This document shows, in pieces, positions 30,845 to 64,000 of a stretch of 64,000 nt of DNA. A program made the position numbers and the translations under genes. The stretch is from an uncultured Bacteroidales bacterium (GTDB taxonomy: Bacteria; Bacteroidota; Bacteroidia; Bacteroidales; FEN-979). The notes under the pieces were generated by a model. That model worked only from the letters and a program-made list of their open reading frames with translations. It was not told the DNA's origin and did no database searches. The stretch's first letter is position 1. The number at the start of each line of letters is the position of its first letter. The stretch spans positions 13,512 through 77,511 of the forward strand of contig CAIWMX010000011.1 in the NCBI GenBank assembly GCA_903913885.1. Direction: 5' to 3'.

Positions 30845-30846
30845 CC

Positions 30847-42626: not shown

Positions 42627-43790
42627 TTGAATACACTGAAAGAAATAGCAGCCCTGTGTGAAGACCTGGCCTTCGACCTCTCCTTTGCACGGGCCAGGGA
42701 GTGGAAATCGCAGGAGGCCGGCCGTGTCGTGGTGGGGCACATGCCCATCTATTTCCCGCGGGAGATCATCCATGCAGCCAACGGACTGGCGGTGGGGATC
42801 CTGGGGGGAGGAGATAAAAAGCTCATCATCAAGGGCGACGCCTATTACCAGTCATATATCTGCCACATGCCCAGGAGCATCGTCGAACTCGTGCTGGACA
42901 AGCATTTTGAAGGGTTCGACGGCTTCATCTTTCCTTCCATCTGCGACGTGATCCGCAACCTTTCAGGTATGTTCCAGCTGATGGGTGAAGGCAAATTCGT
43001 CAAGTATCTCGACCTGCCTCAGAATTTCAAGGCGCACATCGGTGGCACTTTTTACCGACACGAACTTCAAACGGTGATGGATGAAGTGTTCAAACTGAAC
43101 GGGGTGGTGATCACGGCCGAACGGCTCAACCATTCCATCGGACTGTTTAACCTGAACCGCCGGCTGATCTGCCAGTTGTATGATATCCGCCAGGATTTTC
43201 CGTGGCGGATGACGGCGGCCGACCTTTACCACATCGTGCGCGCGGGCTATGTCATTCCCGTGGAAGAACACAACGGAATCCTGGAACAGGCAGTCCGGCT
43301 GATCCAGCAGGAGACCGGCGACCCCATGGACAAGATCCGTGTGCTGGTGATGGGCGCTTTCTGCGAGCAGCCCCCCGCAGGACTGATCCGCACCATCGAA
43401 CTGGCAGGCTGTTATATCGTCGAAGACGATTTCCTGTTAGGCGCCCGGTGGATCCAGGGTGATATCGGCACCGGCAGCGCCGACCCGCTGGAGGCCATAA
43501 CCAGCGCCTACCTTGAAAAGAGCACCTTCTCCTCTTCGGTGTATGATGTGGGCAATCCCAAAGAGGCGCGCCTGCTCGACCTTATCCGGAAACGGAAGAT
43601 CGACGGGGTGATTTTTGCGGCACCCAGTTTCTGCGACCCGGCACTGCTCGACCACCCAATACTGCAGAAGGAGTGCAACGACAAAAATATCAGGTTTATC
43701 AGTTTTCTCTACAGCGAGAATACCGGTCAGTTCAAGGTGATCAAAGAGCAGGTGGGAACGTTCTCGGATTCTATCAAGTTGTGGGATTAA
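42627..43790 (+). CDS. bcrC: benzoyl-CoA reductase (class I, ATP-dependent) subunit C-like
   Basis: 387 aa and a member of the 2-hydroxyacyl-CoA dehydratase/BcrBC superfamily (..FPREIIHAANGLAVGILGG..YYQSYICHMPRS..IFPSICDVIRNL). First of a C-B-A-D-ordered four-gene set. The annotated start is TTG and its exact position is uncertain. Confidence 0.75.
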   Translation: MNTLKEIAALCEDLAFDLSFARAREWKSQEAGRVVVGHMPIYFPREIIHAANGLAVGILGGGDKKLIIKGDAYYQSYICHMPRSIVELVLDKHFEGFDGFIFPSICDVIRNLSGMFQLMGEGKFVKYLDLPQNFKAHIGGTFYRHELQTVMDEVFKLNGVVITAERLNHSIGLFNLNRRLICQLYDIRQDFPWRMTAADLYHIVRAGYVIPVEEHNGILEQAVRLIQQETGDPMDKIRVLVMGAFCEQPPAGLIRTIELAGCYIVEDDFLLGARWIQGDIGTGSADPLEAITSAYLEKSTFSSSVYDVGNPKEARLLDLIRKRKIDGVIFAAPSFCDPALLDHPILQKECNDKNIRFISFLYSENTGQFKVIKEQVGTFSDSIKLWD

Positions 43791-43875
43791 CCTTTTAACG
43801 TTTTACCAGGATATGAAAAATAAAACCATAAACGCATAAACAGAACATTCCTAACCCCTGATTAAACCCAGTCTT

Positions 43876-45156
43876 ATGTCGAAGGAGGTAGCAAAAGAAC
43901 GCAGCATGATCATCCAGAAAGAGATGATGACCCGGCTTTTCAGGGACCTTGGCAACGCCCGGGAGACCGGTAAAAAGGTGGTCTATACTTTCGTTCCCGG
44001 CAACATCTCCGAGCTGATCCTCTCCTTCGACATGCTCCCGGTCTACCCCGAGATCAACGCCCTGCAGTCGGGCATGCGCAAGAAGTCGGGCGGCTACATC
44101 CGCGACGCCGAACAGCATGGCCATTCAGAAGATGTTTGCACCTATGTGAAGTGCGACGTAGGCATGATGCTAAACGGGAACATCGGCCCTACCGGCGAGA
44201 AGATTCCCAGTCCCGACCTGCTGCTGCTGAGCTATACCGGCTGTTTCACCTTCCTGAAATGGTTCGAGACCCTCGAGCGCCTCTATCCCGGCGTGCCGGT
44301 GGCCCTGCTGCACACGCCCTACCAGGAAGCCCACAAGATCACCCCCGAAATGACTGCCTACATGGTCAAGCAGTTGAAGGAGGAGGTGATTCCGAAAATG
44401 GAGAAGGTGTCTGGCAACAAATACGATGAAGAGAAACTGAAAGCCATCCTGCGCAACTCCTCGCAGGTGGAGGATTACATCGTGAAGATCTTCGATACCA
44501 CCAAGCACCGCCCCTCGCCCATCGACGCCTATTTCGCGGGGGTATACTACATCGGCCCCATCAACAGCGGGTTCAGGGGCACACCCGAAGCGGTGGATTA
44601 CTATGCTGAACTCTATAAGGAAATTCTTACGCGTATCGACAAAAAACTTGGCCCCATCACCCCCGAAGGCGAGATGGAAGAGGAGCGGTTCCGCCTCGTG
44701 GTCGAAGGCCCCCCCAACTGGACCCATTTCCGTGAATTCTGGAAATTATTTTATGACATGGGCGCCGTGATCGTTGCCTCCTCCTACACCAAAGTGGGTG
44801 GGGTATACGATATGGGTTTCCGCGTCAACCCCGATAAACCCCTTGAAAGCCTGGCAGAATACTGCATGAATTGCTACACCAACCTCAACCTGGAACAGCG
44901 GGTTGAGTTGTTGTCGAAATGCATTACCGACTACCATGCCGACGGGTTCCTTGTTAATTCAATCAAGAGTTGTAACTCATTCTCTGCCGGGCAATTGATG
45001 ATCATGCAGCAACTGGAGCGCAAACTGGAGATCCCGGTCGGGTTCATTGAATCCGACCTGGTGGATCCCCGGTATTTCTCGTACTCGAATATCAAAAACC
45101 GTCTTGAATCATTCTTCCAGATGCTGGAGCAACGGAAGATGATCGTGACACGCTAG
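43876..45156 (+). CDS. bcrB: benzoyl-CoA reductase subunit B-like
   Basis: 426 aa, same superfamily (..VCTYVKCDVG..LLSYTGCFTFLKW..). Size and position fit the beta subunit. Confidence 0.75.
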   Translation: MSKEVAKERSMIIQKEMMTRLFRDLGNARETGKKVVYTFVPGNISELILSFDMLPVYPEINALQSGMRKKSGGYIRDAEQHGHSEDVCTYVKCDVGMMLNGNIGPTGEKIPSPDLLLLSYTGCFTFLKWFETLERLYPGVPVALLHTPYQEAHKITPEMTAYMVKQLKEEVIPKMEKVSGNKYDEEKLKAILRNSSQVEDYIVKIFDTTKHRPSPIDAYFAGVYYIGPINSGFRGTPEAVDYYAELYKEILTRIDKKLGPITPEGEMEEERFRLVVEGPPNWTHFREFWKLFYDMGAVIVASSYTKVGGVYDMGFRVNPDKPLESLAEYCMNCYTNLNLEQRVELLSKCITDYHADGFLVNSIKSCNSFSAGQLMIMQQLERKLEIPVGFIESDLVDPRYFSYSNIKNRLESFFQMLEQRKMIVTR

Positions 45157-45227
45157 GGAAACTGCTGATGAGCTATTGTCCTCCCCTGTAAACGGGGCAG
45201 GAATGGTATAATTTAACGGATACGTAA

Positions 45228-46604
45228 ATGAAGAAATATTTCCTGGGAATCGATCTTGGATCCACTACCTCCAAAGCCATTATTATTGATGACAACGACC
45301 GGATTATCGGACGCGGGATCACCAATACGCGGGCGAATTATACCGTTGCCACCGAGATCGCGCGGCTCGAAGCCATTTACAATGCGCGATTTTCCCTGCT
45401 GAAGATGAAGCTGGAAGATGAGATCGAACGAAGGCCCGAATACAAAAGATACATCAGGGATATCGAATCGGTTTTCAGGTACATCCAGTTCAAGCGCAGG
45501 CTCGACCGGCTGAACATCCAGTTCCGCGACACGATCGACGGGACTTTCGGCGGGGAGATGAAGGAGAATATAACCCAATATGTTGCCCGGATCGTGAAGG
45601 AGATCGGCCCTGCCATCCTCGATGAATACCTCAACGGCAACCTGGGCCAGAAAAACCAGTTCTTCCGCGACATCGTGAGCGAAAAATACAACCATGAGGT
45701 GAACGGACTGGCGAAAGCCTACTTTGAACCCATGATGCTGGTGTACGACAAAAGCATATCCCACGTGGAGAATGAACTCACCGAATATGATTTCGGGGAG
45801 CTGATTTACCAGTCGATGGAGTTGCTGAACGATAAATATTCGGGGATGGCGGATGTGGCTGAAGAGGAAGCCGGGATCGGGTTCGACACTGAGCTCAACC
45901 TGCTGAAAGGCAACTACAAGCAGATTTATGATTCGCTGAAGGGGCACATCAGTTTCATCGCCAACCTCGACATCCACATCACCAACATGGTGGGCACGGG
46001 TTACGGGCGGGCGTTGCTGCCTTTCCCCGAAAAATCGATCCGGTCGGAGATCCTCTGCCACGCGTTCGGCGCCCATGCCGTGTTCCCTGGAACGCGCACC
46101 GTGCTCGACATCGGCGGACAGGATACGAAGGCCATCCAGGTCGACAGCCACGGGCTGGTGACCAGTTTCTACATGAACGACCGTTGCGCCGCGGGTTGCG
46201 GGCGTTACCTCGGCTATATCGCCGACGAGTTCAACATCTCCCTCAACGAGCTTGGCCCGCTGGCCATTGAAGCCACCAGCGAGGTGAACATCTGTTCCAC
46301 CTGCACCGTTTTTGCCGCGGCCGAGATCAGGGAACTACTCAATGTTGGCCAAAAACGTTCCGACATCCTGGCCGGTCTTCACCGTGCCATCGTGATGCGG
46401 GCCATGTCGCTGCTGGCGCGTTCGGGCGGTGTGCGCAACGAATTCACCTTCACCGGCGGGGTTGCCCGCAACCAGGCCGTGCTGAAGTATGTTTCCGACC
46501 TGGTCCTAAAAAATTACGGCAGCGAAATCAAAATCAACGTCCATACCGATTCGATCTTCATGGGCGCCCTTGGCGGTGCCATGTTCGCCCGAAGAACCAA
46601 CTAA
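45228..46604 (+). CDS. bcrA: benzoyl-CoA reductase subunit A-like (long ATPase subunit)
   Basis: 458 aa. BadF/BadG/BcrA/BcrD-type ATPase (GIDLGSTTSKAIIID ... DIGGQDTKAI ... NDRCAAGCGRYL ... FTGGVARN) with an insertion of about 190 aa after the first phosphate loop, as in the BcrA/BadF long subunits. Confidence 0.78.
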   Translation: MKKYFLGIDLGSTTSKAIIIDDNDRIIGRGITNTRANYTVATEIARLEAIYNARFSLLKMKLEDEIERRPEYKRYIRDIESVFRYIQFKRRLDRLNIQFRDTIDGTFGGEMKENITQYVARIVKEIGPAILDEYLNGNLGQKNQFFRDIVSEKYNHEVNGLAKAYFEPMMLVYDKSISHVENELTEYDFGELIYQSMELLNDKYSGMADVAEEEAGIGFDTELNLLKGNYKQIYDSLKGHISFIANLDIHITNMVGTGYGRALLPFPEKSIRSEILCHAFGAHAVFPGTRTVLDIGGQDTKAIQVDSHGLVTSFYMNDRCAAGCGRYLGYIADEFNISLNELGPLAIEATSEVNICSTCTVFAAAEIRELLNVGQKRSDILAGLHRAIVMRAMSLLARSGGVRNEFTFTGGVARNQAVLKYVSDLVLKNYGSEIKINVHTDSIFMGALGGAMFARRTN

Positions 46605-46616
46605 TATGAAAAAAAT

Positions 46617-46668
46617 CACCCTGTCACCTTGTTACCTTGTTACCTTGTCACCTTGTCACCTTGTCACC
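46617..46668. repeat. 8-nt tandem repeat YACCTTGT, about 6 copies, in the bcrA-bcrD spacer
   Basis: caccctgt caccttgt taccttgt taccttgt caccttgt caccttgt cacc. It ends 16 nt before the bcrD ATG. Confidence 0.92.
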
Positions 46669-46683
46669 ATTTAATAAACCATC

Positions 46684-47517
46684 ATGACAGCTAAACCAAC
46701 CTTCACCCTCGGCGTCGACGTAGGAAGCAGCATCATCAAGGCGGTGCTGATGTCCTATTCGGACACCCCGGTCATCCTTGATAAGGAGTCGGAAAAGATC
46801 CGGAAAAGGAACCCCGAGATGGTCGCCGACCAGCTGATCGATCACCTGCTTGAGAAAAACAACCTCACTTACCAGGATATCACCTACCTGGCATCGACCG
46901 GCGAAGGAGAGATGCTTCAGCGCAAGCGCGGCCACTTCTACAGCATGACCACCCACGCCCGGGGCGGCGTATTCCTGAACCCCGGCGCCCTCACCGTGGT
47001 CGACATGGGCGCCCTGTATGTAAGAGCCATCAGGATCAATGAAGAAGGCAGGGTGCTCGATTACAAAATGACGGGACAGTGCGCTTCCGGGTCGGGCCAG
47101 TTTATCGAGAACATTTCGCGTTACCTGGGACTTTCAATCGAAGATGTCGGGGAGACCTCCCTGAAATCGTTCACCCCGGAAACCCCGTCGGGCATCTGTT
47201 CCGTACTCGCAGAAACCGATGTGATCAACATGGTTTCACGTGGAATTTCCACCCCGGATATCATCAAGGGGATCCACCTCTCGATCGCCAATAAGATCGT
47301 GAAACTGCTCTCCTCGCTCAAGGCGACTTCGCCGGTTGCCCTCACGGGAGGGATGGCCATGAACATCGGGATGATCCAGGCGGTGGAGGAGTTGGTGGCC
47401 GAGAGCAAGCTCAACCTGGAGATCAGGGCCAACGGCGATTCGATCTATGCCGGGGCCATCGGGGCGGCGATATGGGGAGGATTCAGGGATGTAAAACTTT
47501 CAACCGTAAAAAATTAA
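46684..47517 (+). CDS. bcrD: benzoyl-CoA reductase subunit D-like (short ATPase subunit)
   Basis: 277 aa, same ATPase family (GVDVGSSIIKAVLM ... DMGALYVRAI ... TGQCASGSGQF ... LTGGMAMN). Together with the preceding gene it gives the heterodimeric ATPase module typical of class I BCR. Confidence 0.78.
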   Translation: MTAKPTFTLGVDVGSSIIKAVLMSYSDTPVILDKESEKIRKRNPEMVADQLIDHLLEKNNLTYQDITYLASTGEGEMLQRKRGHFYSMTTHARGGVFLNPGALTVVDMGALYVRAIRINEEGRVLDYKMTGQCASGSGQFIENISRYLGLSIEDVGETSLKSFTPETPSGICSVLAETDVINMVSRGISTPDIIKGIHLSIANKIVKLLSSLKATSPVALTGGMAMNIGMIQAVEELVAESKLNLEIRANGDSIYAGAIGAAIWGGFRDVKLSTVKN

Positions 47518-47665
47518 CCTCACCCCCTGCACCCCCTCCCCTGGAGGGGGATGGGGGACAATAAATAACCTCACCCCCTGCACCCCCTCCCCTGGAGGGG
47601 GATGGGGGACAATAAATAACCTCACCCCCTGCACCCCCTCCCCTCCAGGGGAGGGGGACGGGGTA
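47516..47665 (+). repeat. 51-bp tandem repeat x2.9, each unit carrying a CCTCACCCCC box and a GC hairpin
   Basis: Unit aacctcaccccctgcaccccctcccctggagggggatgggggacaataaat at 47516, 47567 and 47618 (the third is diverged). Hairpin CCCCCTCC-CCT-GGAGGGGG. Fills the bcrD/acyl-CoA-synthetase spacer. Confidence 0.92.
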
Positions 47666-47680
47666 CCAAAGTGATAAGCA

Positions 47681-49762
47681 ATGAACAATAGTCTCGACGC
47701 GTTATTCAAACCCAGGTCGGTTGCCCTGATCGGCGCTTCCCAGAAAGAGTTGTCGATCGGGAATGTGATCATTAAAAACCTGCTGCACTACCGGTTCAAT
47801 GGCCCGGTATACCCCATCAACCCGAAAGTTGAGGAGATCCGCGGACTGAAGTCCTATCCCTCCATCCTGGAGGTGCCCGGAGAGGTGGACCTTGCGCACA
47901 TCGTGATCCCGCCGCCCCTGGTACCCGAAGAGGTGGAAAACTGCGGAAAAAAGGGGGTGAAGGCCATCATCATCAACACGGCCGGTTTCAAGGAGATGGG
48001 CGACGAAGGCCAGGCGCTCGAGGATGACTTCCTAGCCAGGGCGCGGAAATACGGTATCCGCGTCGTGGGCCCCAACTGCCAGGGAATCATTAACTCCGAC
48101 CCGGCGATCAACGCTTACTGCAACTTCACCTTCACCTATCCTGAACCCGGACATATTTCGGTGGTCGCCCAGAGCGGCGGCGTGGGTGCCGTGATCATGC
48201 AGGCATTTTACGACATGGGTATCGGCCAGCGCATGTATGCCTCCAACGGTAACGGGTCGGATGTTTCCATTACCGAATTCATCAGCTATTACGGGGACGA
48301 TGATGAAACCCGTGCCATCGTGTTATATGCCGAAAGTCTGGAAAACCCCAAGGAGTTTATTGCTGCAGCCCGGAAAGTCACGGCCCGGAAACCCATCCTG
48401 GCCATCACGGCCGGCCGCACCGAGAAGGGCGCCGAAGCCTCGCGATCGCATATCGGGGGCATAGCCGGCAGCATCTCCATGGACCTCATATACCAGAAGG
48501 CCGGCATCCTCACCTTCACCAGCCAGGAAGACCTTTGTCATGCCGCGGTGGCCCTCTCCACCCAGCCGATCCCCAAAGGCAACCGGGTGGGTATCATTAC
48601 CAACACCGGCGGTCCTTCGGTGATCGCCATTGATGAATTGGATAGTTGCGGGCTGGTGATCCCGCCCCTTTCAAAAAAAGCAGAAAAAATCCTGAAAACC
48701 ACCATGCTTGCTTCGGCATCGGTCAGGAACCCGCTGGATGTGGTTGCCACGGCCGGCCCTGCCCACTTTAAAAGCGCGCTCGAAGTGATGATGAAAGAAC
48801 CGCTGTTCGACAGCATCTATATCAACTTTGTTACCCCGCCCTTTGTCGACTGCGAAAATGTGGCACGCGAAATTGCGGCGGCGGCAAAAGCCGGCAACAA
48901 GCCGATTGTGTGCAATTACATGACGGATAAACAAAAATGGGGTGCCACTTCTAAGATACTGAAGGATGGAGAAGTCCCCTGTTTTGATTTCGCGGAAACC
49001 GCAGCCCGGGCACTTCATTCCCTGGTAAGGTACAACAACATCAGAACGGCAAAAAGGGGAAGCATTAAAAAGTTCACCGGTGTAAGCCGCAATGCAGCCG
49101 GTAAAATCCTCCGCAATGCACGGGAAGAGGGAAGAGACGTGCTAACAGCATCAGAAGTTTACACCATCCTGGAGATTTACGGTATCCCGGTTGCCCCGTG
49201 GAAAATTGCCGGAGATGCGAACGGCGCTGTTGACGCGGCAAACGCGATCGGCTATCCCGTGGTGATCAAGGCGGATGCAGAGGCAATCATCCACAAAAGC
49301 GACGTGGGTGGGGTGGCCGTGAATATTAAAGATGCCACGGAAGCAGCCATGGCGGTAGAAACGATGAAAAAGAAACTGGGTGCGGAAATTAACTTCTTTG
49401 TACAAAAATTTCTTCCAAAAGGAAAAGAACTGTTTATAGGTGCCGTGGCCTCGTCTGGCGTCGGCCACATCATCGGGTTCGGCCTCGGCGGAATCTTCGT
49501 GGAAGTGCTGAAGGATGTGGTATACTGCATCACGCCCGTCAGCGATACCGAAGCCGCCGGCATGATCGGTTCCGTAAAGGCAGCAGCCCTGATCAACGGG
49601 TTCAGGGGCGAACCGGGGATCAACCGGGAAAAAACAGCGGAGATCATCCGGCGGATATCGATGCTGGTAACGGATTTCCCCGCGATCAGGGAACTTGATC
49701 TCAATCCGTTGTTTGCAATTGGCGATGAAATTTGCGTGGTGGATGCCAGGATCATTGTTTAA
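47681..49762 (+). CDS. ADP-forming acyl-CoA synthetase (fused alpha/beta; acetate--CoA ligase [ADP-forming] family)
   Basis: 693 aa. N-terminal CoA-binding/succinyl-CoA-synthetase-like part (FKPRSVALIGAS..GPVYPINPK..VPGEVDLA), a central ligase-CoA domain, and a C-terminal ATP-grasp (..YGIPVAPW..GYPVVIKA..). Confidence 0.85.
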   Translation: MNNSLDALFKPRSVALIGASQKELSIGNVIIKNLLHYRFNGPVYPINPKVEEIRGLKSYPSILEVPGEVDLAHIVIPPPLVPEEVENCGKKGVKAIIINTAGFKEMGDEGQALEDDFLARARKYGIRVVGPNCQGIINSDPAINAYCNFTFTYPEPGHISVVAQSGGVGAVIMQAFYDMGIGQRMYASNGNGSDVSITEFISYYGDDDETRAIVLYAESLENPKEFIAAARKVTARKPILAITAGRTEKGAEASRSHIGGIAGSISMDLIYQKAGILTFTSQEDLCHAAVALSTQPIPKGNRVGIITNTGGPSVIAIDELDSCGLVIPPLSKKAEKILKTTMLASASVRNPLDVVATAGPAHFKSALEVMMKEPLFDSIYINFVTPPFVDCENVAREIAAAAKAGNKPIVCNYMTDKQKWGATSKILKDGEVPCFDFAETAARALHSLVRYNNIRTAKRGSIKKFTGVSRNAAGKILRNAREEGRDVLTASEVYTILEIYGIPVAPWKIAGDANGAVDAANAIGYPVVIKADAEAIIHKSDVGGVAVNIKDATEAAMAVETMKKKLGAEINFFVQKFLPKGKELFIGAVASSGVGHIIGFGLGGIFVEVLKDVVYCITPVSDTEAAGMIGSVKAAALINGFRGEPGINREKTAEIIRRISMLVTDFPAIRELDLNPLFAIGDEICVVDARIIV

Positions 49763-49803
49763 CCCCTATTGGAAATATTGACCTAAAACCTATATTCAAA
49801 ACC

Positions 49804-50763: not shown

Positions 50764-50798
50764 CGTACCGGAGAATTATTAACCTTTAACTGACAATT

Positions 50799-51851: not shown

Positions 51852-51976
51852 CCTCACCCATGGCCCCCGAAACACCTCACCCCCCGGCCCCCAGTGGTTG
51901 AAATACCTCACCCCCCGGCCCCCAGTGGTTGAAATACCTCACCCCCCGGCCCCCTCTCCTCGAAGGAGAGGGGGAG
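51851..51976 (+). repeat. 31-bp tandem repeat (ACCTCACCCCCCGGCCCCCAGTGGTTGAAAT) x2 plus partial copies, ending in the hairpin CCCCCTCTCC-TCGAA-GGAGAGGGGG
   Basis: Units at 51874 and 51905, a degenerate unit at 51851, and a last unit running into the 10-bp perfect-stem hairpin at 51950-51974. Located in the had/oah spacer. Confidence 0.92.
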
Positions 51977-52020
51977 GGCGAAGATATAAACTGAATGTTT
52001 AAAAATTAAAATAAAATGTC

Positions 52021-53199: not shown

Positions 53200-53256
53200 A
53201 GAAACATACCTCGAAAAAGTGTGGTTTTTTTAAATATAAATGAAGATACTGAAAAA

Positions 53257-54030: not shown

Positions 54031-54033
54031 CAT

Positions 54034-54104: not shown

Positions 54105-54130
54105 AACCGGACACGTAAATATTAAAACCT

Positions 54131-55384: not shown

Positions 55385-55412
55385 CCGCTGATCCTAACGC
55401 AAAAAACTGAAC

Positions 55413-56162: not shown

Positions 56163-56190
56163 AGTATTAAACAACCATTCAATTCAGCGT

Positions 56191-57459
56191 ATGGATAACA
56201 AAGCTAAAGAAGTCGTGATCGTAAGTGCTGCCCGAACGCCGATCGGCAGGCACGGAGGCTACTACAATGATCTTCCGGCCGAAGACCTCGCCGTATTGGC
56301 CGTGTATGAAGCCATCCTGCGGTCGGGAATCGACCTGGCCACCATCCGGATCGACCACGTCGTTGCCGGGATGATCTACATCGATTCGATGAACCAGCAG
56401 ATCTACCTCCCGAGAAACGTGGCGATGCGGGTGGCGGATAAGTTCAACGACACGGATAATCTTCGTGTTGCGCCCGGCAAGACAACCCTGCGCATCTGCG
56501 GCACCGGTTTCCAGGTGCTTGCCGACGGGTTTGATCAGCTGATGTCGGATACCGAAAACGCCGGCTGCGTGCTCGCCTTTGCCACGGAGAACATGTCGCA
56601 GACCAACCTTATCCACCAGGGACGGAGAAAAAAGGAAAGCGTTTGGGATTTCGAAGAGGGGCGGCTCCGCGATTACCTGATGGAGGGGTTCAACCACAAC
56701 CTCTTCCAAACCCTGATGCCGAAAACGGCAGAACTGTATGGCTCCCAGACCGGCATCACCCGCAGGGAGTGCGACGAGTTTTCTTACCTCAGCCATATTC
56801 GCGCCATCAACGCGCAATCGAAACAGTGGAACCGGTTTGCCAACCCCGGGGAAAACAACTACCTCCGGGGCATCTTCACAGTCGACACCGTTGACAAGGC
56901 AGGCAATGCCCTCAATGTGTGGCGGGATGAAGGTACAAAATACGATATCAGCCTCGATGAACTCGCCAACCTGCGGCCGATGCTGAAACCCAACGGGCTT
57001 GTCACGCCGGGCACCGCCAGCCAGATCAGTGATGGCGCAGCCGCTGCCGTGCTGATGGAGCGTTCGTTTGCCGATGAAAACAACATCCCCTGCCTTGCGA
57101 AGATCAAGGGATACCAGTTTTCGACCGTCCCCCCCGAAATCATGGGCCAGGGACCGGTGCCGGCCATCATCGACCTGCTGGCAAAACTGGATATGAAAAA
57201 GGAGGATGTCGACCTTTTCGAGGTCAACGAGGCCTTTGCCGCCCAGTATCTGGGCGTGGAGAAGGAACTCCGCCTCCCGCGCGACCGTACCAACGTGAAC
57301 GGGGGCGCCATCGCCATGGGCCACAATATCGCCGCCACCGGCCTGCGCATCACCACCGACCTAGTGTACGAGTTAAAACGGCGGGGACTGAAAACCGGCA
57401 TCGCATCGGCCTGCATCGGCGGCGGCCAGGGCGGGGCCATCTGCGTGGAAATTGTTTAA
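56191..57459 (+). CDS. acetyl-CoA C-acyltransferase (thiolase)
   Basis: 422 aa. Active-site Cys context RICGTGFQ, and C-terminal NVNGGAIAMGHNIAATG and ACIGGGQGGA. Confidence 0.9.
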   Translation: MDNKAKEVVIVSAARTPIGRHGGYYNDLPAEDLAVLAVYEAILRSGIDLATIRIDHVVAGMIYIDSMNQQIYLPRNVAMRVADKFNDTDNLRVAPGKTTLRICGTGFQVLADGFDQLMSDTENAGCVLAFATENMSQTNLIHQGRRKKESVWDFEEGRLRDYLMEGFNHNLFQTLMPKTAELYGSQTGITRRECDEFSYLSHIRAINAQSKQWNRFANPGENNYLRGIFTVDTVDKAGNALNVWRDEGTKYDISLDELANLRPMLKPNGLVTPGTASQISDGAAAAVLMERSFADENNIPCLAKIKGYQFSTVPPEIMGQGPVPAIIDLLAKLDMKKEDVDLFEVNEAFAAQYLGVEKELRLPRDRTNVNGGAIAMGHNIAATGLRITTDLVYELKRRGLKTGIASACIGGGQGGAICVEIV

Positions 57460-57493
57460 TCATCAACCATTAATTACCCAATAACGTAACAAC

Positions 57494-59956
57494 ATGGGAA
57501 CTGTTTTTTCATTCGGGAACAAACTACTCCAGAAGGAAGTCGCGAAACTCAACAGCATTAAAAAAATTGCCGTTATCGGTTCGGGAACCATGGGTATCGG
57601 CATCGGCATCGACATCCTCAACAAAACAGGGTTCGATGTCATCTTCATTGACGTGGCCGACGCCGCGCTCGAAAGAGCCAGGAGAGATATTACCGCGTAT
57701 TTTTCAGGTCTCGCCGAAGGCGGAAGGATCCTTGACGAACAGGCTTTGGAATATATTTCGCGGGTAACCTATTCAAAAGATTTCACCCTCCTCGGGCAGA
57801 CGGAGATCATCTGGGAGGCAGCCACCGAACGGATCGACGTGAAAAAGGTGATTTTCGGGAACATAGAAAAATATGCCGATCCGGGAAAGCTTGTTTTTAT
57901 CTTTTCCAACACCTCCTCGCACACCACGGCCGAACTGGCGGTGCTGTTCAACGACCGGCTCCTCATGGATAAATTCCTGACCGGCCATGGTTATTTCCCG
58001 TTCCATGCAAACCGCCTCTTCGACGTCATGAAAGGGAAATACGCTTCGGAAGAGACCTTTACCGCCGGGGTGGCCTTCGCCGAACAGGTGCTGGAGAAGA
58101 AGGTTATCGCGCTGCGGAACGACCATCACGGTTATGTGGCCGATCCCATTTTCGAAGGTATGGCGGCCATCATCCAGTGGGACATCCAAACCGGGCAGGA
58201 CCTGGTGGAACTCCCGCAGGTTTTTGAATTGCTGACGGCCAACCCGTTCCAGGTACTCGACCGGACAGGCCACATGCCCTATACCGAATGCGCCAGGCAC
58301 CTGGGGAGGGCCCTTCCCGGCAATGACCGGCTGAAAAGTGTTTACAACCAGGATGGCCGGCATTACCCGCAGTGGATCGAAGATCTCGAGAAATCAGGAA
58401 AGACCGGACTCGCCTCGAAGGAAAAACAGGGCTTCTTCAGGTGGGCGGGTGCGGCAAACCGTGAAAAGATCACCGGGGTGTATGATCCCGGGAGCAAGGA
58501 ATATGTTGCCATCGCAGAGATAAGCCGCCTCGATTACTGGTCGCTGTCTGAAGCCGCTGCGCTGGACCACCGCGAATCGGCCATCAAAAGCATCGACGGG
58601 CTGATCCTTATTGCCGGATCGGACGACAAAGGAGGCCTGACCTTCCGAAGATACGTCATCCCCATCATGCTGTATGCCCTCGATCTGATCCAGGACAATT
58701 ACGCCACCGCGGCCGACATCGATTCCTCCTCTAAGGTGGGCCTTCGCTTCAAATATGGTTTATGCGAGATCATCGACAAATTTATCGGTCATTTCAGCAT
58801 CGACGGATTTATCGGGCTGGTAAAAAAATCGGCGCTCGAAAATCCCGGAAGGGACGAACTTTTTGATGTTGACGGAAACAGCGGGCCCCGGAAAGGTTGC
58901 CCCTCCCTGCTATATACGATGAAGAAAAACGGATGGAAAGGTCTGCTCGGTTACGGGCGCATCTATGGCACCCCCGTAAGCCAGCGCAACTTCGCAACCG
59001 GGGCGATGGATCTGTATTACAATGATCTGCGGTTCATTTATCCCTCCAAAAAAGACCGGGTTGCCACCATTATTTTCGACAACCCGCTCCGCGGGAATGT
59101 GTGGAACCGGAACACCCTCGACCAGCTTGACCACGCCATCGGGATCTCGACCGCCCTGTTTGAGCAGGGAGAACTGGGTGCGCTGCTCTTTACCGCTTCG
59201 GGCAAGGGGATGCGCATGCTCGGAGCTGATGCCCGGCAGTTCAACAAGGGCTGGTTTGATGCCCGCACGGGATACCAGTTCCTCGGGGAGGAGGATGCCT
59301 CCTGGTTCACCAAAGCCGGGATGCGGCTGTTCCGTTTCATCCAGGAGATGCCCGTTTGGACCATTGGCGTGTTTGGCGAAAAATGGGGCGGCGGCGCTGA
59401 ATTCACTTATTTCCTGAACCAGCGGTTCGACCTGGTGATGCATGGGGTTGAGTTTGATTCCCTTAAAAGGAAAAACGTTTTCAAAACCAAAAAGAATTAC
59501 AACCAGCCAGAAATTGAATATGGCATCCTGGGCGGCTTTGGCGCCGTGCAGGAACTGGTCCGCCTGGGTTTCGGCGAGTCGCTCATCGACGAACTTTTCA
59601 TCCAGGGCCTCACGGCAACACGGGCTCACGAACTCGGACTCTCAAACAGCGTAAGCGATAATGAATACGAACTGCTTGAAAAAGCGTTCGAACTGGCCCG
59701 GCTGAAACAAAAGTACGCGGTACCTTATGCCGTGGCCCTCTATAACCTGCAGAAAAAGAATGCGTTCGCAGAAGGGTGCAACGATGACCGGCTTACCAGG
59801 GAAACCGGCGAAACCTTCAATCCCGCGAAAAATCCCTATATTTCCACCGCGTTGTTGCGCCTGCTGAACATCGGCGGAAATAACCCGCCGTTGAACCTCG
59901 AAGTGCGGGGCAATTTGCCGGGTTGGGAGAACAACTATGACAAATTATACGAATAA
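57494..59956 (+). CDS. bifunctional 3-hydroxyacyl-CoA dehydrogenase (N-terminal) / enoyl-CoA hydratase-like (C-terminal) protein
   Basis: 820 aa. N-terminal Rossmann IAVIGSGTMGIGIG plus the HACD fold, and a C-terminal approximately 300 aa crotonase-like domain (VATIIFDNPLRGNVWN..LFTASGKGMRMLGADA..). The domain order is reversed relative to FadB. Confidence 0.82.
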   Translation: MGTVFSFGNKLLQKEVAKLNSIKKIAVIGSGTMGIGIGIDILNKTGFDVIFIDVADAALERARRDITAYFSGLAEGGRILDEQALEYISRVTYSKDFTLLGQTEIIWEAATERIDVKKVIFGNIEKYADPGKLVFIFSNTSSHTTAELAVLFNDRLLMDKFLTGHGYFPFHANRLFDVMKGKYASEETFTAGVAFAEQVLEKKVIALRNDHHGYVADPIFEGMAAIIQWDIQTGQDLVELPQVFELLTANPFQVLDRTGHMPYTECARHLGRALPGNDRLKSVYNQDGRHYPQWIEDLEKSGKTGLASKEKQGFFRWAGAANREKITGVYDPGSKEYVAIAEISRLDYWSLSEAAALDHRESAIKSIDGLILIAGSDDKGGLTFRRYVIPIMLYALDLIQDNYATAADIDSSSKVGLRFKYGLCEIIDKFIGHFSIDGFIGLVKKSALENPGRDELFDVDGNSGPRKGCPSLLYTMKKNGWKGLLGYGRIYGTPVSQRNFATGAMDLYYNDLRFIYPSKKDRVATIIFDNPLRGNVWNRNTLDQLDHAIGISTALFEQGELGALLFTASGKGMRMLGADARQFNKGWFDARTGYQFLGEEDASWFTKAGMRLFRFIQEMPVWTIGVFGEKWGGGAEFTYFLNQRFDLVMHGVEFDSLKRKNVFKTKKNYNQPEIEYGILGGFGAVQELVRLGFGESLIDELFIQGLTATRAHELGLSNSVSDNEYELLEKAFELARLKQKYAVPYAVALYNLQKKNAFAEGCNDDRLTRETGETFNPAKNPYISTALLRLLNIGGNNPPLNLEVRGNLPGWENNYDKLYE

Positions 59957-59984
59957 CACCTGTAATTCCTTTTAACTGAGAAAT

Positions 59985-61163
59985 ATGGCAACGATCCGAT
60001 ACAAATCGCCCGACTATTACCTGGTGGATGAACTTTTTACCGATGAGCACAAGCTCATCCGAGGCACGATCCGCGACTGGGTGAACCGCTCGGTGATGCC
60101 CATCATCGATGATGCCAGCCAGCACCACGAGTTTCCCCGCCACCTCGTAAAGGAACTGGGTGAAATAGGGGCGTTCGGTCCCTATATCCCGGTAGAATAC
60201 GGCGGGTCGGGGCTCGACCAGGTATCGTACGGGCTGATCATGCAGGAGCTTGAAAGAGGGGATTCGGGCGTACGCTCGATGGCCTCGGTACAATCGTCGT
60301 TGGTTATGTACCCCATTTTCAAATACGGCACGGAAGAGCAGCGGAGGAAATACCTGCCGAAACTGGCTACCGGGGAGATGATCGGTGCCTTCGGGCTCAC
60401 CGAGCCCAACCATGGTTCCGATCCCGGGAGCATGCTGTGCAAATTCACCGACCAGGGCGATCATTACCTGCTGAACGGCTCCAAAATGTGGATCACCAAC
60501 GCCCCCATCTCCGACATCAGCGTGGTATGGGCAAAGGATGAAACCGGCACCATAAGGGGACTGATCGTGGAACGCGGCATGGAAGGGTTCACCACGCCAG
60601 AAACCCTGAAGAAATGGTCGTTGCGGGCCTCCTCCACCGGCGAACTCGTTTTCGACGACGTAAAGGTGCCCAAAGCCAACCTGCTGCCTGGCGTCAAAGG
60701 GTTGAAGGGGCCGCTCAGCTGCCTGAGCTCGGCCAGGTATGGCATCGCATGGGGCGTGATAGGCGCGGCAATGGATTGCTACGACACGGCCCTGCAGTAT
60801 TCAAAAGAGCGGAAACAGTTCGGCAAACCCATTGCAGCTTTCCAGCTGACGCAGAAAAAACTCGCGGAAATGCTCACCGAGATCACCAAGGCACAACTGC
60901 TCGCCTGGCGCCTGGGCATGCTGCGCAACGAAGACCGGGCCACGCCGGCACAGATCTCCATGGCCAAACGGAACAACGTGAAAATGGCACTTGACATTGC
61001 CCGGGAATCGCGCCAGGTGCTGGGTGCCATGGGTATTTCCGGCGATTTCCCCATGATGCGGCACATGATGAACCTGGAGTCGGTCATCACCTACGAAGGC
61101 ACGCACGACATCCACCTGCTCATCACCGGCCACGACATCACCGGGGAAAGTGCATTTGAATAA
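59985..61163 (+). CDS. gcdH: glutaryl-CoA dehydrogenase
   Basis: 392 aa. DSGVRSMASVQSSLVMYPI, FGLTEPNHGSDPGSM and TYEGTHDIHLLITG closely track the GCDH signature blocks I know from the mammalian and bacterial enzymes. Confidence 0.85.
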   Translation: MATIRYKSPDYYLVDELFTDEHKLIRGTIRDWVNRSVMPIIDDASQHHEFPRHLVKELGEIGAFGPYIPVEYGGSGLDQVSYGLIMQELERGDSGVRSMASVQSSLVMYPIFKYGTEEQRRKYLPKLATGEMIGAFGLTEPNHGSDPGSMLCKFTDQGDHYLLNGSKMWITNAPISDISVVWAKDETGTIRGLIVERGMEGFTTPETLKKWSLRASSTGELVFDDVKVPKANLLPGVKGLKGPLSCLSSARYGIAWGVIGAAMDCYDTALQYSKERKQFGKPIAAFQLTQKKLAEMLTEITKAQLLAWRLGMLRNEDRATPAQISMAKRNNVKMALDIARESRQVLGAMGISGDFPMMRHMMNLESVITYEGTHDIHLLITGHDITGESAFE

Positions 61164-61196
61164 ACCCCGGGAACCATCGTGAAAATCAAACGTTAA

Positions 61197-64000
61197 ATGC
61201 AACAGATCAGCGTCACAATAAACGGCAGGCCATACCAGTTCCTGGCAGGCGACCACGAAATGCTGTCGCACCTGATCCGGGAAAAAGCGGGCCTTACCGG
61301 CACGAAGGTCGGTTGCGAACAGGGAAGCTGCGGCGCCTGTACCGTGCTGCTGAACGGCAAAGCCGTGCTGAGCTGCATCACGCCGGCCATGCGCGCCCAC
61401 CAGGCCGAAATCACCACCATCGAAGCGCTTGCCATGAACGGCCAGCTGCATAAACTCCAGGAAAAGTTTGTTGACAAGGGTGCCATCCAGTGCGGATTCT
61501 GCACACCAGGGATGGTGATGACTGCGCTCAGCCTGGCTCCGGAACTGGATAGTGAAGCAGATATTCCCGCCCTGATCCACCGGATAAAAAAAGGATTATC
61601 CGGGAATCTCTGCAGGTGCACCGGCTATAAAAAAATCATTGAAGCCGTATCTGAATATGTTCTTGAAACCGCCGGTAAAAACCCGGAAATCCGGGAACCC
61701 GCCCTGCAACCTGCGACAGGTGCAGTTGGCGTTCCGCGGCCATACATCGAGGCTGCAAAGAAAGTCAGGGGCGTGGCTGAATATGCCGATGACATCGCTT
61801 CAAAAAACGCCCTGCACTGCAAATTCCTGCGCAGCATCCACCCGCATGCCCTGATAGAAGGGATCGACCTCACGGATGCCCTGGGCCTGCCCGGCGTTCA
61901 CGCCATTGCCACCGGGAAAGAGTTGCCAGGGAAGTTTGGCGTTCTTCCTGTTTCACAGGATGAGACTGCCATGGCGGTGGACAAAGTGCGTTACGCCGGT
62001 GAAATTGTGGCTGCCGTTGCCGCCGACACGGAAGAGATTGCCGATGCAGCCTGCAGGCTCATCAAAGTAAGCTTCCGGCCCATCCGGGCGTTTCTGACCA
62101 TCGACGATTCGCTGAATGATGCCGGGGAATCGGAAAAAATCCATGATACCGGTAAATTCAACAACAACATTCACAAGAAAGTGGAACTGCGCTTCGGCGA
62201 TCAGCGGAAGGGACTGGAGGAGGCGGATATGACGGCAAAGATGTCGTTCGAATTCGACGGCCTGAGCCACGGTTTCACTGAACCTCATGCGGCTACAGCG
62301 TATTGGGATGAAAACGGCCTCACCATCATCACAGCGACCCAGGTGCCGCATTACCTTCACCGCGCCCTTGCCAAAGTACTGGAGGTCCCGCTGAGCCGCG
62401 TCCGCGTCATAAAACCTTACCTGGGTGGCGGATTTGGCGGAAAAAGCGATCCTTTCCCCCACGAGATCATCGTCGCGCATCTCGCCCGTAAAACCGGCAG
62501 GCCGGTCAGGGTGAGGCTCTCCCGCGAAGAGGTGTTTCTCACCAACCACGGAAGGCACCCCTCGAAAATGACCGTGGAAATGGGTATTTCGGCCGAGGGC
62601 ATCATCCGGGTGCTTGATGCCGATGTCGCCATCGACGGCGGCGCCTACGGCAGTTTCGGTGTGGTGACCTCCTACTACAACGGCGTATTGCTGCAGGCGC
62701 CCTACAAACTTGACAATTTCGGGTTCCGCACCTATCGCGTTTATACCAACAAACCGCAATGCGGCGCAATGCGCGGGCATGGCGCCGTGAATCCGCGTTT
62801 TGCCGTGGAGTCGCTTATCGACGACCTGGCACGCCGCATCAACATGGATCCCTGCACGTTAAGGATGAAAAATTTCCTTGATTCCAACACCCTCACCGTG
62901 GGTCAGTACCGGATTACTTCCAATGGAAGCAGCGAATCGCTCGAAAAAGTGATGGAACAATCGCGCTGGCGGGAACGGATCGGGAAAATGGAGAAAGGCC
63001 GGGGACTTGGCGTGGCCTGCGGCTTCTTCATCAGCGGCAGCGCTCTTCCCATCATCTGGAACGAACTGCCGCAATCGGTGGTGCATTTAAAGGTTGATTT
63101 TGACGGCCGGGTGCTCGTTACCTCCGGCGCCAGCGACATCGGCCAGGGCAGCGATACCATGCTGGCCATCATCGTCTCCGAGGTGCTGGGCATCGCGATG
63201 GATAACATATTCGTGCTCGCGGCCGACACCCTGCTCACACCGGTTGATCTTGGCAGTTATTCGAGCCGGGTTACCTTTATGGCCGGCAACGCCGCAAAGG
63301 ATGCCGCTGAGCAGCTGAAAACGGAGATCAGCCGGGCGTTTACGAAGAAGTTCAATATCGGTGCGGAAGATCTTATTTTTTCCGAAAACCGGGTATTCAG
63401 CCACGATAAAACGGTTGATTGCTCATGGATGGAGGCGGTTGATATCCTGACAGCCAAACGGGGCGCCGTAAGCGTGAGTGGAAAATATATCTCCCCGAAG
63501 CTCGGCGGCGATTTTAAAGGTGCCGGCGCCGGGCTGAGCCCCTCCTACACGTTCGGGGCCTGCATTTCCGAAGTGGAGGTGGATGAGGAAACGGGTTACG
63601 TGAAAGTCACGCAGGTTTGGGGAGCCCACGATTGCGGCAAGGCGCTGAACCCGCTGGCCGTTGAAGGACAGCTGGAAGGTTCGTGGCACATGGGGACCGG
63701 CCAGGCGATCAGCGAGCAGATGACCTACAGCAAGGGGTTGCTGTTCAACAACAATTTCCTGGAATACAAGATCCCGACAACCCTTGATACCCCCGACATC
63801 CATGCCAGCATCATCGAAACCATCGATCCTGAGGGACCCTTTGGCGCAAAGGAAGCCGGCGAAGGAGCCATCCACCCGGTGATCCCGGCCATCGCCAACG
63901 CGGTTTTCAACGCGGTAGGCGTACGGATCACCCGGTTGCCCATCCAGGCTGAGGAGATCCTGGCAAAGATGAAAGAGAACAGGATCTCCGAAGCAAAAAT
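61197..64000 (+). CDS. xanthine-dehydrogenase-family molybdoenzyme with the 2x[2Fe-2S] subunit and the molybdopterin subunit fused (Mop-like aldehyde oxidoreductase architecture); the 3' end is at or beyond the window edge
   Basis: Absent from the ORF track because there is no stop in the window. My translation from the ATG at 61197 is open to 64000 (934 codons): MQQISVTINGRPYQF..GCEQGSCGACTVLLNG..IQCGFCTPGM..NLCRCTGY.. continues without a stop into ..RPYIEAAKKVRG..ITATQVPH..PYLGGGFGGK..QCGAMRGHG..GQGSDTML..FGAKEAGEG.. No FAD-domain segment lies between the Fe-S and Moco parts. Confidence 0.85.
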   Translation, partial: MQQISVTINGRPYQFLAGDHEMLSHLIREKAGLTGTKVGCEQGSCGACTVLLNGKAVLSCITPAMRAHQAEITTIEALAMNGQLHKLQEKFVDKGAIQCGFCTPGMVMTALSLAPELDSEADIPALIHRIKKGLSGNLCRCTGYKKIIEAVSEYVLETAGKNPEIREPALQPATGAVGVPRPYIEAAKKVRGVAEYADDIASKNALHCKFLRSIHPHALIEGIDLTDALGLPGVHAIATGKELPGKFGVLPVSQDETAMAVDKVRYAGEIVAAVAADTEEIADAACRLIKVSFRPIRAFLTIDDSLNDAGESEKIHDTGKFNNNIHKKVELRFGDQRKGLEEADMTAKMSFEFDGLSHGFTEPHAATAYWDENGLTIITATQVPHYLHRALAKVLEVPLSRVRVIKPYLGGGFGGKSDPFPHEIIVAHLARKTGRPVRVRLSREEVFLTNHGRHPSKMTVEMGISAEGIIRVLDADVAIDGGAYGSFGVVTSYYNGVLLQAPYKLDNFGFRTYRVYTNKPQCGAMRGHGAVNPRFAVESLIDDLARRINMDPCTLRMKNFLDSNTLTVGQYRITSNGSSESLEKVMEQSRWRERIGKMEKGRGLGVACGFFISGSALPIIWNELPQSVVHLKVDFDGRVLVTSGASDIGQGSDTMLAIIVSEVLGIAMDNIFVLAADTLLTPVDLGSYSSRVTFMAGNAAKDAAEQLKTEISRAFTKKFNIGAEDLIFSENRVFSHDKTVDCSWMEAVDILTAKRGAVSVSGKYISPKLGGDFKGAGAGLSPSYTFGACISEVEVDEETGYVKVTQVWGAHDCGKALNPLAVEGQLEGSWHMGTGQAISEQMTYSKGLLFNNNFLEYKIPTTLDTPDIHASIIETIDPEGPFGAKEAGEGAIHPVIPAIANAVFNAVGVRITRLPIQAEEILAKMKENRISEAK

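Follow-up and report, generated by a model that had tools for sequence, protein, structure and literature searches.

A predicted class I benzoyl-CoA degradation operon in an uncultured Bacteroidales bacterium, with relatives across uncultured Bacteroidota and an embedded candidate radical module

Background

Anaerobic reduction of the aromatic ring is textbook biochemistry of the Proteobacteria and of a few other groups. Class II benzoyl-CoA reductases (BCRs) are tungsten enzymes that work independently of ATP. The class I systems closest to the subject of this study are BcrCBAD of Thauera aromatica and BadDEFG of Rhodopseudomonas palustris, with their ring-opening enzymes Dch, Had and Oah; BzdNOPQ of Aromatoleum (Azoarcus) (PDB 8s02; PMC11971306); and the 3-methylbenzoyl-CoA reductase MbdONQP (PDB 9g87/9gai), a permanent heterotetramer of the BCR/methylbenzoyl-CoA reductase (BCR/MBR) type. 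Here a benzoyl-CoA operon is described from an uncultured freshwater (lake) Bacteroidales bacterium, within a 64,000-nucleotide stretch (termed the window) of contig CAIWMX010000011.1 (assembly GCA_903913885.1, positions 13,512 to 77,511). This operon probably specifies ATP-driven reduction of benzoyl-CoA, ring opening by Dch, Had and Oah, beta-oxidation by way of a decarboxylating glutaryl-CoA dehydrogenase (GcdH), and the feeding in of 4-hydroxybenzoyl-CoA by an Hcr-type enzyme. The class I pathway is itself of an already known kind; it is the phylum that is under-appreciated for it.

Genome-only predictions of class I BCRs within the FCB superphylum, to which the present one can be likened, are on record: in 2024 the reductase and the benzoyl-CoA pathway were presented as a rarity of Krumholzibacteriota metagenome-assembled genomes (MAGs) (PMC10936416), and for the Vicingaceae MAG KA17 the four reductase subunits were reported, with NarG, in a single sentence (PMC8470020). 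KA17 is the isolate carrying one locus (L083) of the clade described here; its enzyme was called Bzd-type in that paper, whereas the clade is assigned below to the Bcr type, as tested on the window's enzyme. Unlike the present analysis, neither paper covers a Bacteroidota-wide distribution, an accessory module or an interchange of class I and class II reductases. A literature search found class I BCRs of Bacteroidota described no further than in the one sentence on the Vicingaceae MAG. To our knowledge, no cultured member of the Bacteroidota is known for anaerobic ring reduction.

Reductase subunits

The window contains an unbroken plus-strand series of 15 open reading frames (ORFs), running from position 42627 to the window's end (Table 1). 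It begins with bcrC-bcrB-bcrA-bcrD, followed by genes for an ADP-forming acyl-CoA synthetase (g5) and a ketopantoate-reductase-like (KPR-like) protein (g6), by had, oah and a dch-like gene--an order also found in relatives--and then by genes for an HGD-D paralog (g10), an activase (g11), a thiolase, a fusion of 3-hydroxyacyl-CoA dehydrogenase with enoyl-CoA hydratase (HCDH/ECH), GcdH and a fused HcrC-HcrA-like protein.

The identity of the subunits was judged by the cut-offs of NCBIfam equivalog hidden Markov models (HMMs), by match scores against PDB entries and by alignment of cofactor ligands. Pfam finds HGD-D twice and BcrAD_BadFG twice across the four reductase subunits. Competing HadB/HadC, Bzd-type and double-cubane models reach only 71-162 bits for BcrB and BcrC (BcrB: HadB model 162, BzdO model 77; BcrC: HadC model 153), far below the scores of the Bcr models. 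The nearest solved structures of all four subunits are those of the 3-methylbenzoyl-CoA reductase, at 191-211 bits: BcrC ranks MbdN (197 bits) above HadC (121) and BzdN (84); BcrB ranks MbdO (191 bits by pairwise phmmer) above HadB and then BzdO; and BcrA matches MbdQ (211 bits) over its C-terminal half.

The cofactor sites were read with the BzdNO structure paper as the key (PMC11971306). Cysteines of BcrB align with all three ligands of the BzdO aqua-[4Fe-4S] cluster (Cys95, Cys128 and Cys380); at the position of BzdO His131 BcrB has a Phe, as does MbdO; and a PE motif common to BcrB, MbdO and HadB is the putative counterpart of a conserved Glu. BcrC keeps the three cysteines common to MbdN and HadC, and is without the three extra cysteines of the BzdN [8Fe-9S] double cubane. 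The pair of bridging-cluster cysteines (C133 and C172 in BcrD numbering) is invariant in BcrA, BcrD and g11, and BcrA carries, after its N-terminal phosphate motif, an insert of about 190 residues that is typical of the large ATPase subunit. As an observation in its own right, BcrD has GALYVR (residues ~107-116) where BcrA and g11 have the nucleotide-binding motif GGQDTK.

Because of these HMM and PDB scores and of the Cys-ligand patterns in BcrB, BcrC, BcrA and BcrD, the four genes are assigned to the BCR/MBR (Thauera) type of class I reductase, and neither to the Bzd type nor to the dehydratases. The Aromatoleum enzyme is like the window's in class, in its radical Birch-like chemistry and in the three Cys ligands of the catalytic subunit; assignment to its type was rejected, given that Bzd models score 77-148 bits on the reductase subunits and that three of the six BzdN cysteines are absent. 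With the Mbd enzyme the window's shares the Cys pattern and the Phe at the His131 position. It is nonetheless distant from Mbd, scoring far lower there than against the Bcr equivalog models, and nothing points to specificity for a methylated substrate.

Ring opening and lower pathway

Taken together, the window's operon resembles the Thauera and Rhodopseudomonas system in its bcrCBAD order, its subunit sizes, its three-Cys BcrC, its passing of the equivalog cut-offs for BcrC, BcrB, BcrD, Had and Oah, its decarboxylating type of GcdH and its Hcr-like molybdenum enzyme. It differs in belonging to another phylum, in lacking ferredoxin and 2-oxoglutarate:ferredoxin oxidoreductase (KGOR) genes and a BclA/BadA-type ligase, in its more divergent BcrA and Dch, in the fusion of HcrC to HcrA, and in the embedded module made up of the synthetase, the KPR-like and HadB-like proteins and the activase.

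The proposed steps are read from family assignment, and the substrates, the electron donor and the role of the module are likewise predictions. BcrA and BcrD would hydrolyse ATP and drive low-potential electrons, by way of BcrC, onto the aqua-[4Fe-4S] site of BcrB, which would convert benzoyl-CoA to cyclohexa-1,5-diene-1-carbonyl-CoA. Hydration by the Dch-like enzyme, oxidation by Had and hydrolytic ring opening by Oah would then yield 3-hydroxypimeloyl-CoA, from which the HCDH/ECH fusion, the thiolases and the decarboxylating GcdH would produce acetyl-CoA and CO2. The GcdH assignment is consistent with a score of only 241 bits against the non-decarboxylating Desulfococcus enzyme (PDB 3mpi), as opposed to 434 bits for 3d6b and 1sir. 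Finally, the fused HcrCA-like molybdenum enzyme, with an HcrB-like subunit encoded just downstream, may remove the para-hydroxyl group of 4-hydroxybenzoyl-CoA to give benzoyl-CoA. In one relative (L085) the HcrB-like gene keeps a Cys-rich loop, its cysteines included, that aligns with 1rm6_B; we take this to be the [4Fe-4S] loop specific to 4-hydroxybenzoyl-CoA reductase within the xanthine-oxidase family.

Extent of the operon

Gene 15, which overruns the end of the window, encodes a protein of 935 aa in near-identical contigs, where it is followed by genes for an HcrB-like FAD subunit, a short-chain dehydrogenase/reductase and a second thiolase; beyond these lies a convergent TonB-ExbD-ExbD-ExbB block. 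As the near-identical contigs thus add three genes, the operon has 18 genes, of which the window holds only a part; it is read as a chromosomal unit of about 25 kb. Rfam and tRNA scans found nothing in or near the operon.

Upstream of bcrC, two TAnnTTTG boxes form a candidate operon promoter of the Bacteroidota type, and there is no further plus-strand copy within 42.6-64 kb. Since the motif is not enriched across the window (31 copies found versus 27 expected, which is not significant), these boxes are a positional hint only. About one third of the copies lie, in the correct orientation, within ~100 bp upstream of a gene start, as fits Bacteroidota -7 promoter boxes; those listed are at 3312, 9031, 10236, 12819, 18084, 24237, 32561, 36721, 41441, 42485 and 42514.

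A first-pass annotation, made from the DNA letters without database searches, had recognized the uninterrupted run of 15 co-oriented genes, the bcrC-bcrB-bcrA-bcrD identity of the first four (387, 426, 458 and 277 aa), and the thiolase, HCDH/ECH fusion and glutaryl-CoA dehydrogenase; all of this is borne out. Its reading of the reductase as Thauera-type likewise agrees with the passing of the Bcr equivalog cut-offs by BcrC, BcrB and BcrD and with the far lower HadB/HadC and Bzd scores. It had also proposed scoring the proteins against subunit-specific models: BcrC, BcrB, BcrD, Had and Oah pass, while BcrA and Dch have the expected best family and fall below its cut-off; had and dch score well above the next family with their own models. 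Its gene order and content need correction, however. It called the operon complete, which it is not; it had dch, had and oah follow the reductase genes, and all three are present, though g5 and g6 intervene after bcrD; and it overlooked five genes, a third of the run, namely those for the ADP-forming acyl-CoA synthetase, the KPR-like dehydrogenase, the solitary HadB-like subunit, its activase and the fused Hcr-like molybdenum enzyme. The TAnnTTTG boxes, which it took as pointing to Bacteroidota, are not enriched overall, though two copies do lie upstream of bcrC.

Table 1. Genes of the predicted operon and its candidate promoter boxes, named by family assignment (positions are those of the window)
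Feature	Coordinates	Strand	Evidence
TAnnTTTG boxes TATGTTTG, TACTTTTG (candidate promoter)	42485..42521 (copies at 42485, 42514)	+	316-bp intergenic region upstream of bcrC
bcrC, gamma subunit (electron-transfer HGD-D subunit), 387 aa	42627..43790	+	TIGR02263 456.8 bits, cut-off 421
bcrB, beta subunit (catalytic HGD-D subunit), 426 aa	43876..45156	+	TIGR02260 637 bits, cut-off 487
bcrA-like long ATPase subunit, 458 aa	45228..46604	+	TIGR02259 429.5 bits, best family, below cut-off 578
bcrD, short ATPase subunit, 277 aa	46684..47517	+	TIGR02261 315.6 bits, cut-off 312.85
g5, ADP-forming acyl-CoA synthetase (fused alpha-beta ACD family), 693 aa	47681..49762	+	Pfam CoA_binding, Succ_CoA_lig, Ligase_CoA_2, ATP-grasp_5
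g6, ketopantoate-reductase (ApbA/PanE) family NAD(P)H oxidoreductase, 319 aa	49804..50763 (ORF from 49732)	+	TIGR00745 subfamily 168 bits
had, 6-hydroxycyclohex-1-ene-1-carbonyl-CoA dehydrogenase, Zn-MDR, 350 aa	50799..51851	+	TIGR03201 443.9 bits, cut-off 338.65; next family 145
oah (BamA-type), 6-oxocyclohex-1-ene-1-carbonyl-CoA hydrolase, 360 aa	52021..53103	+	TIGR03200 586.7 bits, cut-off 464.45
dch-like crotonase, 257 aa	53257..54030 (ORF from 53221)	+	TIGR03189 221 bits, below cut-off 292.5; next family 140
g10, solitary HGD-D protein resembling HadB alpha subunit, 417 aa	54131..55384	+	HadB model 211, BcrB model 161 bits, all below cut-offs
g11, third BcrAD/HgdC-type activase, 249 aa	55413..56162	+	TIGR00241 148 bits, cut-off 125; cluster Cys and GGQDTK
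Thiolase, 422 aa	56191..57459	+	TIGR01930 290 bits, cut-off 240
3-hydroxyacyl-CoA dehydrogenase (N-terminal)/enoyl-CoA hydratase (C-terminal) fusion, 820 aa	57494..59956	+	3HCDH_N 24-209, ECH-like 515-765
Glutaryl-CoA dehydrogenase, decarboxylating (GcdH) type, 392 aa	59985..61163	+	PDB 3d6b and 1sir 434 bits
Fused HcrC (2x[2Fe-2S])-HcrA (Mo), 4-hydroxybenzoyl-CoA-reductase-like	61197..64000, cut by window end	+	TIGR03194 816-820 bits

Accessory module

The proteins of the embedded module--g5, g6, g10 and g11--belong to recognizable families. For g5 the best NCBIfam match, to an ADP-forming 4-hydroxybutyrate-CoA ligase (500 bits), is far below that model's cut-off of 1300. Among PDB entries g10 matches HadB (168 bits) ahead of MbdO (115) and BzdO (84), and it keeps a Cys at each of three motifs (diCsY, nqCrev and sktCarn) that are putative cluster ligands. 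It is in this respect like the subunits of the clostridial systems HadBC/HadI, FldBC/FldI and HgdAB/HgdC, to which the HgdC/HadI-type activase g11 and the linkage to a 2-oxoacid reductase also correspond. Unlike those systems, the module has g10 as its sole HGD-D subunit, a CoA ligase (ADP- or AMP-forming) instead of a CoA transferase, and a linked KPR-family dehydrogenase that most often forms a fusion with the activase.

Gene neighbourhoods were counted over the 58 FCB bcr loci that extend far enough beyond bcrD; 55 of them have a KPR-like gene and 52 a solitary HadB-like HGD-D gene. Directly behind bcrD, 35 loci encode an AMP-forming, FadD-like ligase (in Flavobacteriales, Saprospiraceae and others, as at L053 13703-15448 and L042 13607-15337) and 22 an ADP-forming synthetase (mostly Bacteroidales-like); no locus has both. 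Of the 31 loci in which the KPR-like and activase genes are neighbours, 25 have them fused into one ORF of 575-615 aa with ApbA, ApbA_C and BcrAD_BadFG domains (for instance L053 16662-18506, L070 16517-18241 and L069 14081-15844). This fusion is a Rosetta-stone link that would tie together g6 and g11, which in the window lie 4.6 kb apart. Within the KPR-like family, the columns matching N98, K176, S244 and E256 of E. coli PanE, which we take to be its active-site residues, are invariant among relatives.

A metagenome scan centred on g10 yielded 18 distant loci with g10-like genes at 53-59% identity. An activase adjoins the gene in all 18 and an ADP-forming ligase in 10; a KPR-like gene is nearby in 3, Oah is in the locus in 3, and a Bcr-type BcrB in none. 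Because so few of these loci contain Oah, the module is not specific to aromatic pathways. It is also found beside genes of aromatic pathways: in L120 (3570-18426) the HGD-D gene, activase and ADP-forming ligase are part of a BCR cluster of the Bzd type, along with Had, Oah and a KorA-like gene; in L106 (3388-19183) an Ldh_2-family 2-hydroxyacid dehydrogenase takes the place of the KPR-like gene, and a BamA-type Oah follows; and in L167 the module adjoins class II bam genes (1194-8848). Reductase genes of three sorts, Bcr-type, Bzd-type and class II, are found as its neighbours.

The slot that g5 shares with AMP-forming ligases at first suggested that g5 is a benzoate-CoA ligase, an idea that was dropped because the ligase travels with the HGD-D/activase module outside Bcr clusters. 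On the simplest reading, g5, g6, g10 and g11 would form one functional unit consisting of a 2-oxo/2-hydroxy-acid dehydrogenase, a CoA ligase, a single-subunit, dehydratase-like radical enzyme and its activator, which would turn a 2-oxo acid into a 2-hydroxy acid, its CoA ester and then an enoyl-CoA. Most likely the unit would serve as an entry route of the radical 2-hydroxyacyl-CoA-dehydratase type; candidate substrates, named by inference only, are aryl-lactates, 2-hydroxyglutarate and hydroaromatic acids.

Interchange of reductase classes

The class II enzyme of Geobacter metallireducens (BamB-I; PDB 4z3w) enters the comparison through three relatives (L009, L089 and L090) that hold bam genes of the bamBCDEF set beside the same downstream genes. 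The first, a Bacteroidales MAG whose BcrB is 94% identical to the window's, carries bamFEDCB (727-8512, minus strand) divergently from bcrCBAD, and its BamB scores 1257 bits against the Geobacter protein. In the others, L089 (a 473-kb contig; bam genes at 3-3094) and L090 (bam genes at 3-1460), bamB directly precedes the same ACD-KPR-had-oah-dch-HGDD series at 80-91% identity, with no bcrCBAD. In close relatives, class II bamB-F can thus accompany bcrCBAD or stand in for it; the window itself, unlike Geobacter, has no bam genes and is class I only.

A bolder proposal can be framed from these observations: that FCB-type and some other benzoyl-CoA clusters hold an uncharacterised radical system (a single-subunit HadB-like [4Fe-4S] protein, an activase mostly fused to a catalytically intact KPR-like dehydrogenase, and a CoA ligase that is either ADP-forming, and so energy-saving, or AMP-forming), by which compounds such as aryl-lactates of phenylalanine and tyrosine origin, or hydroaromatic acids, would enter the benzoyl-CoA pathway along a new anaerobic route, and that the dearomatising step is modular in these Bacteroidales, with class I, class II or both placed before the same operon. 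We regard this as speculative and rather unlikely. If it were true, abundant uncultured Bacteroidota would be unrecognised anaerobic degraders of aromatics in anoxic fresh waters. The accessory module, the KPR-activase fusion and the interchange of reductase classes may be the new parts of what is described here.

Distribution and host

A scan for BcrB in one genome per GTDB species found 186 relatives, of which the best 80 were examined. These 80 are 76-96% identical to the window's BcrB, have conserved neighbours and all come from MAGs; 68 are labelled Bacteroidota (Bacteroidales, Lentimicrobiaceae, Saprospiraceae, Chitinophagales, Flavobacteriales, Vicingaceae, Crocinitomicaceae, Sphingobacteriaceae and Weeksellaceae), and the remainder are Ignavibacteria, Chlorobiota, Calditrichaceae, KSB1, three unclassified genomes and one labelled Gammaproteobacteria. 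The last of these, a 7.8-kb contig (L035; RFGN01000074.1) with a BcrB 80% identical to the window's, is probably mis-binned. In a collection of 5.8 billion proteins the top 120 relatives of BcrB are all at least 81% identical, every named one is FCB or unclassified, and many already bear the name 'benzoyl-CoA reductase subunit B [Bacteroidales bacterium]' (NCBI/PGAP, IMG). Because of this wide FCB spread, of the existing database names and of the prior papers, the finding is neither isolated nor unannotated: the gene set is genuine and common in uncultured Bacteroidota.

The genes flanking the operon encode cargo with the Por_Secre_tail domain of the type IX secretion system (T9SS), a C25 peptidase, DUF3857/3858 proteins, TonB and NuoD. 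Named relatives of NuoD, at 85-92% identity, are nearly all MAGs of Bacteroidales, Bacteroidetes or Bacteroidota (one is labelled Alphaproteobacteria). These identify the host as a member of the Bacteroidota, in line with the Bacteroidota/FCB host named in the first-pass annotation. The further suggestion made there, that the system is phylogenetically unexpected and possibly assembled horizontally, does not stand against a cluster that is widespread in FCB genomes, proteins that are already named, and an operon whose composition is that of its flank. That comparison, too, had been proposed there. Tetranucleotide correlations between operon and flank are 0.82-0.91, as against 0.83-0.92 within the flank; relative synonymous codon usage correlates at 0.96-0.98; and GC content ranges over 0.54-0.55 across the operon, compared with 0.50-0.54 for the flank. 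Because tetranucleotide and codon usage match, the operon is regarded as compositionally native, without sign of recent transfer or chimerism.

Synteny of the upstream flank was considered as evidence of vertical descent and rejected, as that flank is kept only within the same species and differs between genera.

Alternative readings

The rival with the best standing is one in which the operon mainly degrades a precursor rather than free benzoate--an aryl-lactate or aryl-pyruvate from phenylalanine or tyrosine, a hydroxycinnamate or a hydroaromatic acid--with the BCR as a downstream step. Activation of the precursor would fall to the ADP-forming ligase, dehydration to the HadB-like enzyme and chain shortening to beta-oxidation, with Hcr dehydroxylating para-hydroxylated compounds. 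Such a route would account for a ligase slot that holds FadD-like AMP-forming enzymes or ADP-forming synthetases, never a benzoate-CoA-ligase type, and for an operon lacking a BclA-type ligase; for the ligase adjoining the HGD-D gene in distant loci; for a 2-hydroxyacid dehydrogenase of some family accompanying the module; and for the presence of Hcr, two thiolases and an HCDH/ECH fusion, in a host whose T9SS cargo is proteolytic. Its sole basis, on the other hand, is gene content; the HGD-D subunit is single, Oah is found in just three of the 18 distant loci, and 2-hydroxyglutarate is an equally possible substrate. We hold it to be a tentative possibility, with the odds against it. It is compatible with the favoured pathway of benzoyl-CoA reduction, ring opening and beta-oxidation, but would change the physiological substrate.

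A recent, isolated horizontal acquisition from a denitrifying proteobacterium is very improbable. The Bcr-type reductase, the decarboxylating GcdH and Hcr do resemble those of Thauera and Magnetospirillum, the flanks do vary between genera, and the 77-86% identity of the copies in Ignavibacteria, Chlorobiota, KSB1 and Calditrichia points to a degree of transfer within FCB; but composition and codon usage are indistinguishable from the flank, BcrB occurs at the identities given above in at least 80 species-level genomes with FCB-specific neighbours in common, the top 120 relatives are FCB or unclassified wherever named, and no mobile-element genes were seen in the window.

Very unlikely as well is the view that the four genes encode a 2-hydroxyacyl-CoA dehydratase with its activators, or a reductase of a substituted aryl-CoA such as methylbenzoyl-CoA. 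The BCR and dehydratase families are homologous, BcrA misses its cut-off, and the nearest solved structure is a 3-methylbenzoyl-CoA reductase. Yet BcrB and BcrC reach 637 and 457 bits with their own equivalog models, as opposed to 162 and 153 with those of HadB and HadC; MbdO and MbdN, at no more than 191 and 197 bits by pairwise phmmer, are distant relatives; the two ATPase subunits differ from each other, the longer having the extended insert of the BcrA type; and genuine Had and Oah genes lie in the same predicted operon.

Chimeric assembly of the window, or mis-binning of a proteobacterial contig, as the Gammaproteobacteria label of the related 7.8-kb contig and the Alphaproteobacteria label of one NuoD relative might hint, is highly improbable, given that the TonB-bcrC junction and its flank recur in several independent lake-metagenome assemblies from different samples, that the longest recorded contig of the NuoD entry and that of the BcrB entry are equal in length (311,016 bp), and that composition is uniform across the window.

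Points against the proposed pathway

Several considerations weigh against the favoured reading of the operon as a working benzoyl-CoA pathway with a radical entry module. BcrA aligns to TIGR02259 over its full length (4-454 to 3-432) yet misses the cut-off, and BcrD passes its own marginally, by only 3 bits. The Dch-like crotonase is below the Dch cut-off (221 vs 292.5), though this is its best family by 80 bits. The HcrA domain has 4-hydroxybenzoyl-CoA reductase alpha as its best family at 816-820 bits against a cut-off of 994.55 (XdhA: 538), and the HcrB-like subunit has the beta family at 214 against 404.55; the HcrC (gamma) domain scores 146-149 against 257.8, with the XdhC and glyceraldehyde-dehydrogenase gamma models slightly higher. 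The operon contains no BclA-type benzoate-CoA ligase, and neither a ferredoxin, a ferredoxin-reducing enzyme nor a KGOR. Placement of the reductase in its class is by HMM and PDB score ranking, as a proxy for a tree with named references from Thauera, Rhodopseudomonas or Magnetospirillum; plasmids searched by tblastn for named Bcr/Bad sequences gave matches of only 22-24% identity, of which four bear a 2-hydroxyacyl-CoA dehydratase family annotation.

As for the module, a second HGD-D (beta) partner for the g10-like gene is absent from every locus examined, characterised 2-hydroxyacyl-CoA dehydratases being alpha-beta heterodimers, and the substrate is a guess. All related genomes are MAGs, and we know of no Bacteroidota isolate or enzyme shown to reduce benzoyl-CoA. 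Moreover, class I enzymes are considered characteristic of facultative anaerobes (PMC11971306). The flavours of the reductase and of GcdH in this operon are those of facultative anaerobes.

Implications

If the operons are functional, aromatics derived from lignin, protein and pollutants are mineralised in part by a phylum that is dominant among the heterotrophs of anoxic lakes, sediments, groundwater and sludge. The module and the class I/class II interchange provide clonable targets for asking how strict and facultative anaerobes pay for dearomatisation and what feeds benzoyl-CoA in nature. These statements are drawn from MAG sequences, and the core annotation is already public.

Other features of the window

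Three features lie upstream of the operon. A DUF805 RNA motif (Rfam RF03081; 73.9 bits, gathering threshold 51.1) is found on the minus strand at 24159-24224, just upstream of a gene for an outer-membrane beta-barrel protein (23332-24144). Four large ORFs (456, 544, 737 and 569 aa) at 24427-32556 have no Pfam match at E <= 1e-5. Lastly, a minus-strand ORF for an Fe/Mn superoxide dismutase (9194-10207; 337 aa) has at its C-terminus an unassigned stretch of about 110 aa beyond its two superoxide dismutase domains.

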